Assembly: GCA_963761305.1 (NCBI GenBank)
Contig: CAVXGK010000001.1
Location: 1,440,001 to 1,504,000, forward strand
Origin: an uncultured Gemmatimonadaceae bacterium
GTDB lineage: Bacteria; Gemmatimonadota; Gemmatimonadetes; Gemmatimonadales; Gemmatimonadaceae
Direction: 5' to 3'
DNA length: 64,000 bases
Shown: positions 56,323 through 63,205 of the stretch, piece by piece
Numbering within the stretch: the first letter of the stretch is position 1
How the letters are laid out: every line of letters starts with the position of its first letter
The notes under the pieces: model-generated
What the model saw: only the letters and a program-made list of their open reading frames with translations
What the model was told of the DNA's origin: nothing
Databases searched by the model: none
Made by a program: the position numbers and the translations under genes

Positions 56323-57081
56323 ATGAGACATTCGCAGGGGCAAGTGTTCCACACCGGCCGCCGCATCCAGATGTTTCTGGATGCGAACGATTCGCTGTTC
56401 GGCAGTATCAACAAGTCCGCCACGCGCGCCGAGCTCGACACGGTCGTGACGGCACTCGGCACCGATGCCGGCGCACAGGCAACGGGCCGCACGACCGCTC
56501 TCGGTGAATCGGCCAACCAGCGCGCGCTGCGGGTGGCGCTGCGGCTGAACAACATGCGGCCGATCGCGTCGATCGCGAAGCTGCGACTCCGCACGGTGCC
56601 CAACTTCGCGGCGCTGAGGATGCCGTCGCCGCATCTCACCGGGAAGGCGCTCGTCGCGCACGCGAGCGGCATGGGGGGAGCCGCCAAGCCGTACGAGCAG
56701 GTGTTCATCGACAGCGGCCTGGCATCCGATTTTCTGGCCAGGCTGTCGGCAGCAACGGCCGCGGTCGAAGCGTCTCTGCTTGCTCGGGCGAACGCCCGCG
56801 GCCAACAGTCGCAGGCGACCGGGTCGCTCAGACAGCTCGAGGTCCGCGGTCGCGGGGTCTTTCAGGCGCTCAGCGATCTCGTGGTCCCGATTCTTTCGAC
56901 GGACATCGGGAACAGCGGCCTGCTCGCCGAGTGGCGAAGCGTGCGCCGTGTGACACTCAAGCCGGGGCCGACGATCGGCTCGGCGCTGGCGGCGACGCAA
57001 CTCGATCCGCCGGAGGGTCAGCCGGCGCCCGCAGCTTCAACGCCGGCGCCGCAGCCGAGTAGCACAACCGCAGCCGCATAG
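56323..57081 (+). CDS. Hypothetical alpha-helical protein
   Basis: AGGAG RBS before ATG 56323; Ala/Leu-rich helical body with a Pro/Ala/Thr tail. Confidence 0.72.
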   Translation: MRHSQGQVFHTGRRIQMFLDANDSLFGSINKSATRAELDTVVTALGTDAGAQATGRTTALGESANQRALRVALRLNNMRPIASIAKLRLRTVPNFAALRMPSPHLTGKALVAHASGMGGAAKPYEQVFIDSGLASDFLARLSAATAAVEASLLARANARGQQSQATGSLRQLEVRGRGVFQALSDLVVPILSTDIGNSGLLAEWRSVRRVTLKPGPTIGSALAATQLDPPEGQPAPAASTPAPQPSSTTAAA

Positions 57082-57162: not shown

Positions 57163-57370
57163 GCAGCTGTAACATTTTGTTCCGGTCCTTTGCGCCGAAT
57201 CGTCGCACAATGCACGGCGGAGCTGGCGGGTTTCACGCGTGGAACCCGCGATTCCGACCACCGCGCCGATTCGAGAACTGGTATGAGACTCGCCCTTCTT
57301 GCTGCACAGGCCCGACCCCCAGCCACGCCGCAAGCCGGCTTACAGGGATGTAACTTCGCTGTGTGGAAAA

Positions 57371-57398
57371 TGTCACGTTTTGATGGTGTCCATGACAC
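57371..57398. promoter_or_regulatory. Putative operator TGTCACG-N13-CATGACAC upstream of the TPR gene
   Basis: Split palindrome; identical arms recur at 59037-59063. Confidence 0.6.
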
Positions 57399-57485
57399 GA
57401 TCATCCGATTGATCGAAGTCCATGGCACGCCGATATATGGCTAGTGCGGCTTGGCTCCTATCTCGTTCGGCATGAGGAAAGGGAC

Positions 57486-58733
57486 ATGATTTCGTTTGCA
57501 GCGCTCCGGCACCTCGCGTTCTTCGACGAGCTGTCGCGGCTGGACGAAGCGGACGATTCCTGGCGTGAGGTCTCCGCCGGTCTCGTGGTGCTGCGGCTGG
57601 TCGACCGGTGGCTGGAAGAGGGCGCCAGCGTGGTCGCGACCGACACGTGGGGGTACACGTCGGTCGTCGGCGCGGTGGACGCGATCGCGGTCGGACGCCC
57701 GGTGCGCGGCATGCTCCGCAGCGTCGTCGACGCGATGGCGGCGGCCGGCAACCCGAATTTCCGCACCGTCGCGCCGCGCTTGATGGCCTACGCCCGGGCG
57801 CTGGATTTCGACGCCAGGTGGGTGCTCGCCGTAGACGTCTACCACACGGTCATCGCGTTCAGCGAGCCGCTCGAGAATGCCGACACGGTGATCGCGGCCC
57901 ATCTGCGCCTCGGCTACTGTCTGCGACAGACGGGCGAGATCGACCAGTCGGCGGCAGCCTACTCGATGGCGGGAAGAATCGCCGAGCAGACCGGAGACAT
58001 GATGGGCGTGCTCCGGGCGCGTATCGGCGACGCCAAGATCGCCATGCTCCGGGGGAATCTTCCCCGCGCTGAGCTGATACTGGACGAGACCATCGAGCAG
58101 GCGGTCAAGAATGGACTGCCGGCCGTGGAGTCGATGGCGCTGCACGACCGCGCGAGCGCCGCGGGTATGCGCGGAGACTACGAGCTCGCGGTCCGCCTGG
58201 CCTATCGGGCCCTGCCCGGATCGGACAGCGAACGAAGCCGCGATCGTATTCTTCACGACATCGCCACGGCGTTCAATCTGCTCGGCGTCCGTAGCGCCGC
58301 CCGCGATGCGTTCACTGTACTCGTCGCTACGAGTCAGGAGCGGTATCTGCGGTGGGCGTCGTCAATCCAGCTGTTGGCGATTGCCGCGCAAGACGGGATC
58401 GGCCCGGTGTTCGAGAAGTATCGACAGGACCTGGGCGTCCAGCCGCTGCCGCCGGCGCTTCGCGCGGAATTCCAATTCCAGACCGGTCGTGGCTATCTCG
58501 CCTTGGGCCACTTCGCAGACGCCACGCAATGGCTCGAAGAGGCCGTGTCCACGGCGAACGCCAGCGGCTTGTACCAGACGGTGTTCGAGGCGGAGAGCGC
58601 GTTGGTCAACGCTCGACAGGCTCAGATCCGCCAGAACCGTGCGACCCCACACCGACCTTTGGCACCGGATCTCACATACGTCGCCAGGGCGATGCGGGAG
58701 ATGCGGGAGTCACTCATCGGCGCCCAGAGATAA
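57486..58733 (+). CDS. Cytoplasmic TPR-like helical repeat protein
   Basis: GAGGAAAGGGAC RBS region; TPR-like units (AHLRLGYCLRQTGEIDQSAAAY, GNLPRAELIL, GDYELAVRLA, GRGYLALGHFADATQWLEEA); no signal peptide. Confidence 0.8.
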   Translation: MISFAALRHLAFFDELSRLDEADDSWREVSAGLVVLRLVDRWLEEGASVVATDTWGYTSVVGAVDAIAVGRPVRGMLRSVVDAMAAAGNPNFRTVAPRLMAYARALDFDARWVLAVDVYHTVIAFSEPLENADTVIAAHLRLGYCLRQTGEIDQSAAAYSMAGRIAEQTGDMMGVLRARIGDAKIAMLRGNLPRAELILDETIEQAVKNGLPAVESMALHDRASAAGMRGDYELAVRLAYRALPGSDSERSRDRILHDIATAFNLLGVRSAARDAFTVLVATSQERYLRWASSIQLLAIAAQDGIGPVFEKYRQDLGVQPLPPALRAEFQFQTGRGYLALGHFADATQWLEEAVSTANASGLYQTVFEAESALVNARQAQIRQNRATPHRPLAPDLTYVARAMREMRESLIGAQR

Positions 58734-58763
58734 AAAGCAGGGCCCGAGCCGAGGCTCGGGCCC
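58732..58763 (-). terminator. Intrinsic terminator for the small peptide gene (possibly bidirectional)
   Basis: Perfect stem GGGCCCGAGC/GCTCGGGCCC (58740-58763), followed on the minus strand by TGCTTTTTA. Confidence 0.75.
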
Positions 58764-58786
58764 ACCGTCACCACGAAAACGTCAGG

Positions 58787-58933
58787 TCAATTCAAACAGC
58801 GGCCATCGCTGCCAACCCATCCGCCGCAGGACGACGAATCATTGCTCGCAGTCGGCGCCGTGGCACTGGTGCAGGCGGAAAGAACAAAGGAGGTAATGGC
58901 GAGAACGAGAAGGGCAATCGGGCGGCGAGACAT
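58787..58933 (-). CDS. 48-aa lipobox-containing peptide with C-terminal C-x9-C loop
   Basis: MSRRPIALLVLAITSFVLSA|CTSATAPTASNDSSSCGGWVGSDGRCLN; GGAGA RBS upstream and terminator downstream. Confidence 0.75.
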   Translation of the reverse strand: MSRRPIALLVLAITSFVLSACTSATAPTASNDSSSCGGWVGSDGRCLN

Positions 58934-59034
58934 GGCTTTCTCCGTCGAAGGCAGGGCCGGCGAGGGTACTCTTGGCAGGGGATCCTTCTGGCTTGCCATC
59001 TTAGGGTCGCGGTTGGGCTCGTAAACGCGCATTT

Positions 59035-59064
59035 TGTGTCACGAGGTTGCGGTTTCATGACACA
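59035..59064. promoter_or_regulatory. Putative operator TGTGTCACGA-N10-TCATGACACA in the divergent peptide/AraC promoter region
   Basis: 9/10 inverted repeat; core TGTCACG-N12-CATGACAC matches 57371-57398. Confidence 0.65.
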
Positions 59065-59082
59065 GAGCCAGCTTCCCTCTTC

Positions 59083-59871
59083 GTGGACGTCGCTGCGTTT
59101 CTTCCACGCCCGCTGCTCCCTCAGCTCAAGATCGCTCTCGGCTCGGAGCACACACTCACCTCGGTTGCGAGTTGGGGAGAGCTTCGGTCGACCGTCCAGC
59201 AGTGCATGATCGACATCGTCGTCGCCGATCCGTGCGCTACCGGTTCCGTCGAAGTCGAGTCGCTCGAGCTGATCCGCCGACAGTTTCCCTCACTCCCCAT
59301 CGTCCTCTACACGTCGCTCGCCGCGAGTGCCTTCAGCGCGACGGTGCGGCTGGCTCGATCGGGAATCGAGCACGTGGTCTTGAGCCGGTTCGACGACGAG
59401 CCGCGAAGGTTTCTCGAACTGCTGGAAAGCATCCCCGCGAACGAGCTTGGCGAACGGATGCTGCGGGAATTGGCGGGACCGTTGTCGTGTTTACCCGTGG
59501 TCGTCGTGCGAGGCATCGACCAGTTGTTCCGATCACCGGCGCGTTTTACGAGTGCCGGAGATCTCGCCGCGGCAGCGGGGATGAACGTTCGAACGCTGTA
59601 CCGCAACCTCGAGCCGGCGGGCTTCTACTCGGCGAGAGCGTTGGTCGTGTCGGCGAGGTTGGTGCGGGCGTACGCGTATTTGCGGGATCCGGGCAGGTCG
59701 ATCAAGGACGTGGCGGCGAAGACGGGCTACACGTCTCCATGGCAGCTCTCGCAGCACATGCGGGAGATGACGGGACGAACCGCCGAGCAGGTTCGACGTG
59801 AGATGTCGCCGGACGAATTGATCGCTCGCATGGTCGAACAAGTGCAGCAGCAGCGGAGGCAAGGCGAATGA
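59083..59871 (+). CDS. AraC-family regulator with atypical receiver-like N-terminal domain
   Basis: IDIVVADP and LPIVLYTS receiver-like strands; double HTH (LAAAAGMNVRTLYRNL, SIKDVAAKTGY...MREMTG). Start assumed at GTG 59083. Confidence 0.82.
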   Translation: MDVAAFLPRPLLPQLKIALGSEHTLTSVASWGELRSTVQQCMIDIVVADPCATGSVEVESLELIRRQFPSLPIVLYTSLAASAFSATVRLARSGIEHVVLSRFDDEPRRFLELLESIPANELGERMLRELAGPLSCLPVVVVRGIDQLFRSPARFTSAGDLAAAAGMNVRTLYRNLEPAGFYSARALVVSARLVRAYAYLRDPGRSIKDVAAKTGYTSPWQLSQHMREMTGRTAEQVRREMSPDELIARMVEQVQQQRRQGE

Positions 59872-60350
59872 CGTGGCCGGTAGTTCCCGGAATGGGGACC
59901 GGAATCGGGGGGCGGGGGGTATCATCTGCCAAGGACGTGCGGCGGGAGTTGCCGCGCGCCCGTTTGGTACGCCTGCTCGTCGTGGACGACGAGCCCTCGA
60001 TCTGCAAGGCGCTCGGCATGGCTTTTACTCACGCCGGGTACGACGTCATCACCGCGAAGAGCGGCGAGGCGGCGATCGCAACGATCCAGACGGAACGGGT
60101 CGACGTGCTCCTGATCGATCTCCGCATTCCGGACGTGCGCGGCGACGAAGTTTTCGAGTACGCCGCCGGCGTTCAGCCAGACCTTCGAGACCACACGCTG
60201 TTCATGACGGGCGACATCAGCGACCAGGCGATCGAGCTGATTGCCGCGTGCCGCTGTAACTTCATTCGCAAGCCGTTCGACCTGAGCGTGATGTTCGACG
60301 CGGTCGCCGCGCTCGCGCCGGTGGAGCACGTCCGCAAGTCGTCTGCCTGA
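59868..60350 (+). CDS. Single-domain response regulator (receiver)
   Basis: LLVVDDE, DVLLIDLRIP, FMTG, IRKPF. ATG overlaps the AraC stop; the true start may be further downstream. Confidence 0.88.
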   Translation: MTWPVVPGMGTGIGGRGVSSAKDVRRELPRARLVRLLVVDDEPSICKALGMAFTHAGYDVITAKSGEAAIATIQTERVDVLLIDLRIPDVRGDEVFEYAAGVQPDLRDHTLFMTGDISDQAIELIAACRCNFIRKPFDLSVMFDAVAALAPVEHVRKSSA

Positions 60351-60371: not shown

Positions 60372-60950
60372 CTAGAACTTCCAGCTTCGCAAGGTTTTTA
60401 GTGTTTCCTCGAGGGCGAGTCGTTGCGCTGTCTGCGTCGACTCGGCGAGCAATCCTTCGTAGGTCGAGATGGCGACTTTGAGCGCGACGGGGTCCTCTTC
60501 GTCGTTCGCCAGGCTCGTGGCGTTGTCGGCCAGCGCGGCGCGCGCCAGTTGATCGGCGGGAAAGCGCCGGCTGACCTCCATCCAGCGATCGACGCGCTTG
60601 CGGAGCGACGATTCGGAAAGCGCCCAGAGGTGCCAAGCGCCGCGGTTGGACGGATCGATTTCCTTGGCGCGAACGGCCAGCTTGGAAACGGCGTCGGGGC
60701 CACGGCCGGCAAGCCAGTACGAGTTGGCGAGGACGACGAGCGCCTGTGCGTCGTCCGGGGAGACAGCGGTGACGTGCTCGTAGAGGGGAATTACAACTTC
60801 GGGCAAGTCGCGATATGGTTCCGCGGCCGACTTGGCGTCGGCGGCGGAGAGACCGCTGGCGAAGGAACGAAGGTCGTCGAGGAGTTGGCCGACGTCGTTC
60901 GAACGGCGATACGCATCGACGTACAGGGCGACGGTTGGTTGATCGGACAT
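60372..60950 (-). CDS. Hypothetical helical (TPR-like) protein
   Basis: SPDDAQALVVLANSYWLAG and IDPSNRGAWHLWA are TPR-like turns. Confidence 0.7.
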   Translation of the reverse strand: MSDQPTVALYVDAYRRSNDVGQLLDDLRSFASGLSAADAKSAAEPYRDLPEVVIPLYEHVTAVSPDDAQALVVLANSYWLAGRGPDAVSKLAVRAKEIDPSNRGAWHLWALSESSLRKRVDRWMEVSRRFPADQLARAALADNATSLANDEEDPVALKVAISTYEGLLAESTQTAQRLALEETLKTLRSWKF

Positions 60951-61393
60951 GGCAAAAAAGCTACGCGAACGGCAAGGCTGGAGCTGGCAATCCCGCCTAT
61001 GTACCGACATTGGCTCGTTTGATGCCTCTTCCGGGGCGGGAGCCGTTCCGAGCGAGGAGCCGGGCCCGTCTGCAACTTTTTACAGGGTTGCGCGAAACCG
61101 GAGAAAAGGCGATACTCTTGGCGTCCGCCGGCACGACCGCGACGAACCCCTGAGTTGAAAGCGATGGGTTGGGTGGGGGGGGTCGGAGGTTGCAGGGCCC
61201 GGGCCGCGCCGTCGCGCCAGCATCGCCGGGATCGCGTGAGGTTCCCCGCGCCCCGTCGGTACCGAGAGTTCAGCCGCGTCGCGGCAAGTGTTTTTCCCGT
61301 CACGCATTTCGCGTTTTTTCGCTCGCCCGTAGCTCGGCGAGCAGTTTTCGGCGAACGCCGAATCAGCATCACCTTTTCTATCGAACCATCAGC

Positions 61394-63205
61394 ATGAGCG
61401 AAAGTCGACGCCCACCTCGTCGTGGCCGTGGTCGCCGTCCGTCTACCGGAACCGGCGCAGAACCCATCGACAATCCGTATCGCGACGAAGTCGAGGCAAG
61501 TAGCGCGACGTTGTCGGTCCCAGATGTCGAATCGCCGCCACCAGCGCGCGAACATTCAGAGCCGCCGCCGCCGACGCCGGCGCCGAGACGTCACGAACGC
61601 GCGACGATGGAGACGGACACACCGTCCACCTCCTCGGCCAACGTTCCTTCGGCTCCGCCGGCCGCCGCTCCAGCGACGCCGTCACAGTACGTCGAGCGCG
61701 AGCGACCTGTCGCCGACAACCCACCGCCCCACTCGAATGGCGAGTCGTCGCAGCCCGCACCGAACGGCGGCGGCTACCCGGCCGGCGGCGGTTGGTCCGG
61801 CGGCGCGGGCGGAGGGGGAGGGGGAGGGGGAGGGGGAAATCAGACAGGCAGCTCGCAACGCGGGTCGTACGAGCCACACGCGCATCGCGACCGCGGTCAG
61901 GATCAAGGTGGCGGCCGTGATGGGGGCGGCGGTGGAGGTGGTGGCAGCTTCCACGATCGGCGCAACGGTGGACGACGTCACCGGCGCGGCAGGGGACGCG
62001 GGCAGCGAGGCGGCGGTCGAGAAAACCAGCCGCAACAACCGCAGCAGCAACAGCAGCACCAGGGCGGTCAGCCGATTCAGATCGTCGCGACCGCCGAGGC
62101 GCGCGGATGGTTCGAGCCCGCGCGCGACGCAGGATTCATCCGCCGCGCGGGCAACAGCTACCTCGCGGAAGCCGGCGACGCCTACGTCCCGCCGCACGTC
62201 GTTCGACAATTCCAACTTCGGAAAGCCGATCTCGTCGACGCGACGACCGGCCTGGATCAGCGCGGGCGTTCCACGGTGGTCGAAGTCCGCACGATCAACG
62301 ACATCGATCCGGCGGTTGCGTCAAAGCGGCCGGAGTTCAATTCGCTCACCGCGTCGTATCCCGAGCGCAAGCTGTTCATGGAGACGGGCCGTCCCGCCAA
62401 AGCCGGCGCGGAGCTCATTCGCCGCTCGATCGATCTCATCGCGCCGATCGGCTACGGCCAACGCGCGCTGATCGTGGCGCCGGCACGCGCGGGTAAGACG
62501 ACGCTCCTCCACGGCATCACGGAAGGCGTCGCGGTCAATCACCCGAACGCGGCGCTGCTCATCCTCCTCGTCGACGAGCGTCCCGAGGAAGTGAGCGAAG
62601 CGATTTCGTGGGGCGTGGGTGAGGTCATCTCGTCGAGCTTCGACCAGCCCGCGCAGCGGCACGTCGAAGTCACCGAGATGGTGCTCAATCGCGCGCACCG
62701 TCTGGTGGAATCCGGCAAGGACGTCGTGATCGTGCTCGATTCGCTCACGCGCATGGCGCGCGCGCACAATACGGCCGAGCGAGGCACGGGCCGCACGTTG
62801 TCCGGAGGGTTGGACGCCACGGCGATGGCCAAGCCGAAGGCCTTCTTCGGATCGGCCCGCTCGATTCCGGACAGCTCCGGCGGCGGCTCGCTCACGATCA
62901 TCGCCACGGCGCTGGTCGAGACGGGCTCGCGGATGGACGACGTGATCTTCGAGGAGTTCAAGGGCACCGGCAACTGCGAGATCAAGCTCGATCGCGGGCT
63001 GGCCGAGAAGCGTATCTATCCGGCGATCGACATCGGAACGAGCGGGACGCGGCGGGAGGAAAAGCTCTTCCGTCCGGACCAGATCGACAGCGTGTTCACG
63101 CTGCGCCGGGGCTTGAGCCAGATGCCGCCGCAATCGGCGATGGAGTGGCTGATCAAGCGCATCGCGGCGACTCCGAGCAACGACGCGCTGCTGGCGGGGT
63201 TGTAG
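61394..63205 (+). CDS. rho: Transcription termination factor Rho with long disordered N-terminal region
   Basis: PIGYGQRALIVAPARAGKT, LLVDERPEEV, LDSLTRMARA, TALVETGSRMDDVIFEEFKGTGN, SGTRREE. Confidence 0.93.
   Translation: MSESRRPPRRGRGRRPSTGTGAEPIDNPYRDEVEASSATLSVPDVESPPPAREHSEPPPPTPAPRRHERATMETDTPSTSSANVPSAPPAAAPATPSQYVERERPVADNPPPHSNGESSQPAPNGGGYPAGGGWSGGAGGGGGGGGGGNQTGSSQRGSYEPHAHRDRGQDQGGGRDGGGGGGGGSFHDRRNGGRRHRRGRGRGQRGGGRENQPQQPQQQQQHQGGQPIQIVATAEARGWFEPARDAGFIRRAGNSYLAEAGDAYVPPHVVRQFQLRKADLVDATTGLDQRGRSTVVEVRTINDIDPAVASKRPEFNSLTASYPERKLFMETGRPAKAGAELIRRSIDLIAPIGYGQRALIVAPARAGKTTLLHGITEGVAVNHPNAALLILLVDERPEEVSEAISWGVGEVISSSFDQPAQRHVEVTEMVLNRAHRLVESGKDVVIVLDSLTRMARAHNTAERGTGRTLSGGLDATAMAKPKAFFGSARSIPDSSGGGSLTIIATALVETGSRMDDVIFEEFKGTGNCEIKLDRGLAEKRIYPAIDIGTSGTRREEKLFRPDQIDSVFTLRRGLSQMPPQSAMEWLIKRIAATPSNDALLAGL

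Follow-up and report, generated by a model that had tools for sequence, protein, structure and literature searches.

Described peptide-receptor systems and the cassette of an uncultured Gemmatimonadaceae bacterium

Intracellular peptide-receptor signalling has been described for Gram-positive bacteria (PMC10075063, PMC13220807), and the survey of the RRNPP signature covered complete Firmicutes genomes (PMC10075063). In the Rap–Phr systems, the receptor acts on a separate regulator (PMC3601957, PMC7641744). Tandemly repeated signal units have been described among the RRNPPA propeptides (PMC11343458). In the cCF10/PrgX/PrgZ system of Enterococcus, the pheromone is lipoprotein-derived, and the receptor has a dedicated OppA-like binding protein next to it (PMC7117660). 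The cassette considered here lies in a 64,000-nucleotide (nt) stretch, hereafter the window (positions 1440001-1504000 of contig C1), of the 5.2-Mb genome (66% G+C) of an uncultured Gemmatimonadaceae bacterium. This source genome is designated G000 (contigs C1 and C2), and L-numbers denote homologous loci. The cassette comprises a gene for a protein with tetratricopeptide repeats (TPR), a gene for a small lipoprotein, a regulator of the AraC type and a stand-alone receiver.

The cassette is a real feature, conserved and inherited together across Gemmatimonadota. With a probability of roughly 0.6, it represents a Rap–Phr-like peptide pheromone circuit with a lipid-anchored precursor in a two-membrane phylum. 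The signalling interpretation of the initial annotation, which had proposed that a processed C-terminal peptide binds the TPR protein, is partly supported. A literature search that covered few subscription journals and excluded supplements found neither the cassette nor a circuit of this type in any two-membrane bacterium described in print. Within the window, the elements are as follows.

57486..58733, strand +: TPR gene, 415 residues; cytoplasmic, all-helical protein with an N-terminal helical region, about seven TPR-like repeats and a capping helix; candidate receptor of the peptide.
58740..58763, strand -: terminator-like hairpin of the small gene, intrinsic type, 10 pairs, T-run on the minus strand.
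58787..58933, strand -: small gene; 48-residue prolipoprotein with signal peptide, lipobox LSAC, T-A-P motif, variable linker and Cys-closed tail; candidate pheromone precursor.
58796..58828, strand -: peptide tail Cys36-x9-Cys46; predicted signalling unit with a presumed disulfide.
58998..59025, strand -: putative small-gene promoter; -35-like TTTACG 59025-59020, 16 nt, -10-like TAAGAT 59003-58998.
59028..59064, strand -: putative strong tandem direct-repeat operator with a 21-bp period; abuts the -35 of the small gene, just before the AraC start.
57369..57406, strand +: weak tandem operator-like site upstream of the TPR gene; two half-sites, 22-bp period.
59083..59871, strand +: pseudo-receiver–AraC regulator, 262 residues from GTG 59083; receiver-like N-domain, HTH_18 C-domain.
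59868..60350, strand +: stand-alone canonical receiver with DD, D, T and KPF kept; accessory.

The gene set of the initial annotation held throughout: the four open reading frames (ORFs), the lipobox, the hairpin and the ATGA overlap lie where it had placed them, with the TPR gene and the small gene convergent. The small gene has a ribosome-binding site (RBS; GGAG upstream), a basic-hydrophobic signal, the lipobox LSAC (Cys21) and its terminator-like hairpin; the C36-x9-C46 tail is a feature which that annotation had missed. The AraC ORF ends at 59871 and overlaps the receiver ATG at 59868, with translational coupling of the two. GTG 59083 (262 residues) is more likely than TTG 59047 to be the conserved start of AraC, because close homologues on record have 258-262 residues.

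The closest likeness is to Rap–Phr, especially RapF–PhrF–ComA and Rap(pLS20)–Phr–Rco, where a receptor of about 400 residues combines an N-terminal helical part with a TPR superhelix and lacks a helix-turn-helix (HTH) (PMC3601957, PMC7641744). Here, as there, the (candidate) receptor adjoins a small exported propeptide whose C-terminal 5-10 residues are variable and can repeat in tandem (PMC11343458). In place of the separate regulator of Rap–Phr, gene linkage points to a pseudo-receiver–AraC protein as the candidate partner. Unlike Rap–Phr, the cassette has a two-membrane host, convergent genes and a precursor of the secretory-pathway lipoprotein type (Sec/SPII, signal peptidase II), often with a Cys loop, and sequence homology was not detected. 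The presumed target also differs, being a dedicated pseudo-receiver–AraC with an operator at the peptide promoter. Whereas Rap–Phr occurs on mobile elements, no match was found in the phage, plasmid and viral collections searched. In NprR–NprX and PlcR–PapR, a TPR receptor also lies beside a re-imported peptide (PMC13220807), and the fold of the TPR protein resembles those receptors with Z-scores of 17.6 and 15.0. NprR and PlcR carry their own HTH, whereas DNA binding here sits in the separate AraC protein.

The resemblance to cCF10/PrgX/PrgZ consists in the lipoprotein precursor and in an OppA-like gene beside the receptor in 11 loci. The cCF10 pheromone corresponds to the end of a signal peptide; here, in contrast, the signal peptide is conserved, and what varies and repeats is the C-terminus of the mature part (about 17-45 residues). 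In MxiE–IpgC and InvF–SicA, an AraC regulator is run by a partner without a DNA-binding domain whose availability is set by an exported ligand, and the cassette would share this arrangement; SicA is a TPR protein. It differs in that a type III system is not linked and the ligand is a microlipoprotein. The type III chaperones IpgC and SicA are small and bind large translocators.

Conservation of the cassette and variability of the peptide tail

A 22-row TPR profile was searched in 401 genomes of the phylum (E <= 1e-8) and matched in 195 of them, namely in 69/95 in the source family, 97/166 in the sister family and fewer elsewhere; the unpublished genome G183 counts towards the 195 but towards nothing else reported here. 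The 160 loci examined comprised 30 from an earlier match set, the 30 top profile matches and 100 of the 120 other matches listed; at least 130 weaker matches exist besides these, and the counts therefore describe the stronger homologues. Removal of 8 duplicates, L041 and partial or broken matches left 146 full-length loci, 140 of them with at least 450 nt downstream.

A convergent ORF of 36-65 residues with a signal pattern was present in 138 of these 140 loci; a lipobox was found in 136, an RBS in 135 and both in 133. The combined filter (signal, lipobox and RBS) was passed by only 4/1290 other ORFs of 350-480 residues of the source genome. The peptide-gene linkage (133/140 versus 4/1290) is thus beyond chance. 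An AraC gene stood at the expected distance in 136 of the 139 loci with 1300 nt, and the receiver in 106/139, so that AraC, and not the stand-alone receiver, is the constant partner. The adjacent peptide genes and AraC neighbours that the initial annotation had expected beside TPR homologues were accordingly found. Metagenomes yielded 80 loci, 9 of them off the contig end, with the microgene in 52 of the 55 that had enough sequence and AraC in 45/47. When judged by the RRNPP signature of PMC10075063, the cassette falls within the relaxed level: the propeptide (48 residues here, 36-65 in the 138 loci) lies within the range of 10-100 residues, the receptor (415 residues, with TPRs) within that of 250-500, and the genes are directly adjacent (138/140 and 52/55). 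The strict level calls for a Sec/SPI (signal peptidase I) propeptide, and the lipobox of 136/138 peptides matches the Sec/SPII pattern instead.

In five other families, a convergent lipobox microgene was read by eye in 13/19 loci. The layout varies there, with an extra N-terminal part on the TPR protein (family f7) or an AraC-like ORF upstream (f4). Since these loci keep the TPR–peptide pair with a varying AraC, the pair is the core, with AraC as its usual partner and the receiver as an accessory. A TPR homologue 79% identical occurs in an uncultured Gemmatimonadaceae, and the Atlas clusters are mostly from Gemmatimonadota. Scanning a genome collection with the single TPR protein gave one locus, and no relatives were found in viral contigs, phages or plasmids with single-protein or close-clade queries. 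A soil metatranscriptome contained 5% of the query words, and 27 contigs of relatives (25 of them <95% alike) touch all four genes, including the microgene start; these contigs give neither strand nor level and are not counted as support.

The small ORF has 48 residues here and 36-65 across the 138 loci. Its signal peptide, lipobox and T-x-P motif are conserved, the linker varies in length and the tail is hypervariable: 126 of the 138 peptides have distinct tails, and among pairs with AraC identity of >=90% only 4/49 share an identical one. The tail is Cys-closed in 95/138 and linear in 43/138, with about 8 switches on the TPR tree. Substitutions in codons 1-21 of 11 relatives form a coding pattern, as judged from 100/170 base differences at third positions and from 65 synonymous and 60 non-synonymous codon changes. 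In 8 loci (L161, L174, L176, L182, L184, L117, L128 and L131), identical C-terminal units of 6-8 residues stand in tandem in 2-4 copies, for example HTIGSGN x3, HGPDAGS x4, DFVNPHI x3 and ESQGSNN x2. Because such identical units recur in tandem, a unit of about 7 residues is predicted to be the functional product. The GxxGS-like tail that the initial annotation had suggested scanning for is not the family motif, as GxxG[SA] occurs in only 11/138 tails. T-x-P follows the lipobox Cys in 133/138 peptides; it is excluded from the signal because it is also found in larger lipoprotein-like ORFs of the source genome (5/80).

Prolipoprotein processing may be expected from the family pattern and from the presence of lgt, lspA (two copies) and lolA in the source genome. 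This genome also encodes three family-5 (OppA/DppA-type) binding proteins. In 11/138 loci from two TPR clades, a gene of this type directly precedes the TPR match in the same orientation, at a distance of about 130-310 nt; 3-kb flanks existed for only 93 of the 138. The 11 loci are L068, L073, L080, L105, L107, L120, L124, L129, L149, L150 and L159, and the binding protein encoded there may be dedicated to catching the peptide.

Several genomes carry 2-5 TPR matches, and the paralogous cassettes retrieved bear different tails. The source genome itself has a second, diverged cassette (C2:3359298-3361785) with the same layout of AraC, a 68-residue lipoprotein and a TPR gene; its tail is Cys-closed but different, its TPR gene is split over two overlapping frames, and the main operator matrix gave no match in it. 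At L029, L027 and C2:1558448-1560664, a pseudo-receiver–AraC gene comes directly after the TPR gene, and a microgene was not detected in between; at L029 and L027 this pair stands just upstream of a full or broken cassette. These TPR genes are possibly orphan receptors. L017/L030, L022 and L180/L185 have an intact microgene, but frameshifts or stops interrupt their TPR or AraC gene, through either decay or assembly error. In L161, L174, L176 and L177 (f7), the TPR protein has 580-620 residues with an extra N-terminal part of about 200, for which no Pfam match was obtained in the two members scanned.

TPR protein, pseudo-receiver–AraC regulator and operator

The TPR protein has no N-terminal signal, and its TPR matches in Pfam are weak and below cut-offs; a DNA-binding domain was not found in it. 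Its model is all-helical with a predicted local distance difference test score (pLDDT) of 92.1 and a predicted template modelling score (pTM) of 0.83. The best structural matches are APPBP2 (Z 22.9), LGN (21.4), the peptide-bound Rap phi105 (21.3; root-mean-square deviation 4.8, 300 aligned) and MalT domain III (21.1). Foldseek ranked LGN first, with Rap and NprR lower. Sequence profiles find LGN-type and generic TPRs, with TPR_12 in 22/22 aligned members, and 6/22 members have weak LcrH/SycD matches far below cut-off. RRNPP members (Rap, NprR, PlcR, PrgX, Rgg, AimR) were found neither in the NCBIfam/Pfam scans nor among the 60 of 66 PDB profile matches listed. Sequence homology to RRNPP receptors was not found in these searches, and the fold match to Rap ties with other TPR proteins; the caution with which the initial annotation had treated this homology was well placed.

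In the TPR register, positions 2, 5, 6, 9, 12 and 13 of helix A face the groove. Conserved polar residues occur at such predicted positions: R147 in 182/188, R179 in 171/188, R254 in 177/188 and D/N258 in 184/188 (Asp in 154/188, Asn in 30/188), while position 295 is Asn in 92/188. R254-x3-D258 resembles RapF Arg223 with Asn227, the strictly conserved groove Asn four residues on, although the register relative to Rap is uncertain.

Co-variation was assessed on disjoint homologue pairs in three identity bands with the overall TPR distance removed, which falls short of strict independent contrasts. Tail change followed predicted groove change with r of 0.19 (86 pairs, permutation p 0.039), 0.16 (72 pairs, 0.098) and 0.43 (86 pairs, 0.0002). 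Variability-matched random position sets reached the groove r in 0, 6 and 0 of 400 draws per band, and the signal-peptide, linker and convex-face controls gave r of -0.22 to 0.12. The receptor–peptide co-variation that the initial annotation had suggested looking for was hence present at predicted groove positions (r 0.16-0.43), and it was not specific for the tail in the whole-protein comparison. The groove signal lends modest support to direct binding of the tail by the TPR protein.

The C-domain of the AraC protein gives HTH_18 above cut-off (E 6e-13) and so has the C-terminal double HTH of AraC/XylS. Its N-domain is receiver-like by profile matches (HupR receiver, E 4.7e-5; CpaE; Response_reg in 5/31 members), on which the assignment rests, and not on hhalign, which gave a probability of 3% against the cassette receiver. 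The single-sequence model is confident in the HTH half only and was not used for the N-domain (pLDDT <50). Asp is kept in 133/135 and Thr in 109/135 N-domains, but the acidic pair and Lys are absent from the consensus; a canonical phosphorylated receiver keeps the acidic pair, phospho-Asp, Thr/Ser and Lys. On this residue pattern the N-domain is best read as a pseudo-receiver, and the regulator probably needs no kinase. The N-domain is also the likelier target of the TPR protein. As stated in the initial annotation, the window has no histidine kinase (zero HATPase_c domains), but the genome holds 78 HATPase_c matches elsewhere, so the missing linked kinase is weak evidence. Two pseudo-receiver–AraC paralogues have no TPR neighbour (C2:2325067-2325936 and C2:3169669-3170637); one of them is transcribed away from a pilin-like gene cluster, with a dpp-like operon at a distance of 6 kb, and the other lies near dnaA/dnaN-like genes.

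The initial annotation had described a split palindrome common to both promoters. The motif TGTCA..TGACA does occur in both (57371/57393, gap 17; 59037/59058, gap 16), but it is a direct repeat with a 21-bp period that is weak at the TPR promoter. The palindrome reading was rejected, as exact TGTCA-N16-TGACA is found in only 11/138 peptide promoters and inverted self-similarity has no peak. Self-similarity is best at lag 21 in about 106/138 peptide promoters, with the half-site consensus TG(T)C-x-CAAAA. Upstream of TPR genes, the sense strand has 34 tandem sites at lags 20-22 and the opposite strand 8, so that the site is weaker there. Within the window, the operator scores 29.8 at the peptide promoter versus 8.1 at the TPR promoter. 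The proximal TGACAC stands 10 nt before a -35-like hexamer in both promoters, this being TTGATC 57409-57414 on the TPR side; the small-gene promoter was read by eye from aligned homologues, a consensus scan having missed it.

For AraC/XylS regulators, a site next to the -35 is an activator position and a 21-bp direct-repeat period is typical; papers in support of the latter rule were not found in a literature search. Among AraC columns, co-variation with the variable base of the operator is highest at 185 and 235 (TTG numbering), in the two recognition helices: G accompanies E/Q; A accompanies Y with S or T; and C accompanies D, H, L or V plus A. This co-variation of the repeat with recognition-helix residues suggests that AraC activates the peptide gene. 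Scanning the whole source genome with a clade matrix at lags 21-22 gave one site above threshold, the peptide promoter itself, and because no second strong site appeared, the target found is the cassette itself.

Proposed circuit, alternatives and neighbouring genes

Linkage, anatomy, tail repeats, operator and the two co-variation signals are observations, from which we infer the following biochemical steps. To judge from its signal and lipobox, the microgene would yield a prolipoprotein destined for export and lipid anchoring. Closure of the Cys pair would follow in the periplasm or at the surface, where a protease would free a C-terminal unit of about 7-12 residues, which may be imported by a permease of the Opp/Dpp-type ATP-binding cassette (ABC) family. 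The unit would then bind the concave groove of the cytoplasmic TPR protein, as the co-variation suggests, and this protein, lacking a DNA-binding domain, would control the neighbouring pseudo-receiver–AraC by protein contact. A role of the TPR protein as an anti-activator, with release once the peptide binds, is slightly preferred to that of a co-activator. AraC would bind the 21-bp repeat beside the -35 of the microgene and activate it, giving positive feedback, and would bind the TPR promoter more weakly. The stand-alone receiver may serve as an accessory output or input. A more far-reaching version falls somewhat short of even odds: an independently evolved, phylum-wide pheromone language with tethered disulfide-closed or repeated signals of 7-12 residues that are imported, a MalT/LGN-type TPR receptor, a kinase-free self-activating pseudo-receiver–AraC, >100 signal types and several channels per genome.

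A number of points weigh against a pheromone circuit of the Rap–Phr kind. The Rap fold match ties with APPBP2, LGN and MalT, and Rap, NprR and PlcR are missing among the best 60 of 66 profile matches. Groove positions were assigned from the general TPR register and not from coordinates, a +4 register shift scored as well in disjoint pairs (0.048 versus 0.045), and one of the three identity bands is non-significant. In the whole-protein test, tail and signal peptide track TPR distance alike (partial r 0.27 versus 0.26). Co-variation between AraC and operator rests on few clade changes (7-9 parsimony steps), and the source genome yielded no second strong operator and hence no output regulon. TPR–peptide pairs of family f8 have no AraC within about 1.2 kb, and the TPR–AraC pairs at L029, L027 and C2:1558448-1560664 have no detected peptide. 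Lastly, the lipid anchor and the outer membrane would hinder release and cell-to-cell travel, and no protease gene is linked to the cassette.

The difficulty of release disappears if the cassette is a cell-autonomous sensor of export or of the envelope, the strongest of the alternatives. The TPR protein would hold the tail of the unexported precursor, and active Sec/lipoprotein export would drain the precursor, freeing the TPR protein to act on AraC; neither release nor re-import is needed. A precedent is IpgC, a chaperone without a DNA-binding domain that co-activates the AraC regulator MxiE after substrate secretion, as described in 10.1101/2022.04.20.488988. The weak LcrH/SycD matches point the same way, and so do the secretion and envelope neighbours (GspH-like pilin in 49/138, LemA in 48/138, gspE/gspG upstream in close relatives), although these represent clade-inherited synteny and not independent events. 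The groove co-variation and the AraC operator fit equally well. Nevertheless, the Cys-closed tail of 95/138 peptides would make sense only after an oxidising compartment, and hypervariable, paralogue-specific, multi-copy tails with OppA-like neighbours fit a released kin-specific signal better, so that such a sensor is unlikely, if worth keeping in mind. Retention of the lipobox in 136/138 peptides suggests that anchoring is selected, and the outer membrane would hold back a periplasmic fragment. Both facts suit a short-range or self-only signal: after clipping in the periplasm, the tail would be taken back by its own cell or be handed on by contact or in vesicles, and it would serve as a timer or a sensor of envelope proteases instead of a density signal. 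All receptor-side evidence fits this too, but the tail diversity among close relatives (4/49 identical) is easier to understand through kin discrimination, and we consider a self-only role rather improbable.

It is also conceivable that the microgene is a mere regulated output, an entericidin- or MgrB-like lipoprotein acting on an envelope target or, for the receiver, on an unlinked kinase; the TPR protein would then respond to a different cue. The microgene has the strongest operator and so is a target of AraC; the receiver is canonical, with 78 HATPase_c matches in the genome; and peptide-less TPR–AraC pairs exist. On the other hand, linkage of the microgene to the TPR gene persists even with AraC displaced or missing (13/19 other-family loci), tail changes track the predicted TPR groove and not convex positions, and 126 different tails are incompatible with a fixed envelope target. 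An output role is therefore very improbable.

If the pheromone circuit holds true, a two-membrane example would overturn the Gram-positive division of intracellular peptide-receptor signalling, and would raise the matter of how a peptide leaves its lipid anchor and crosses two membranes. The cassette offers a testable handle on communication in a poorly cultured phylum, with a defined receptor, candidate peptides and an operator. It also constitutes a natural library of >100 receptor–peptide pairs, which could serve as orthogonal switches.

In many loci, the TPR gene is divergent from genes for type II secretion or pilins, which is no more than a lead; in the close relatives L193:609-7655, L002-L004, L009 and L016, these genes form a type II secretion-like cluster (gspE, gspG and more), and the source genome has a similar cluster at another place (about 2.99 Mb on C2). 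Upstream of the cassette in the window, 56323-57081 (+) encodes a 252-residue protein that belongs to no Pfam family and gave 13 additional tblastn matches in the genome (up to 63% identity); its Atlas clusters are unnamed, and it is missing upstream of the cassette in most relatives. On the other side, the cassette is flanked by a 192-residue TPR-like protein (60372-60950, -), which is a neighbour in at least 13 other loci, and by a Rho-like gene with a long low-complexity N-terminus (61169-63205, +). At L164, L165 and C1:1427441-1431963, other TPR genes follow a larger lipoprotein-like ORF of about 200-240 residues in the same direction, which is possibly a related design with a protein-sized ligand; at C1:1427441-1431963 a sigma-54-type activator-like ORF accompanies them.

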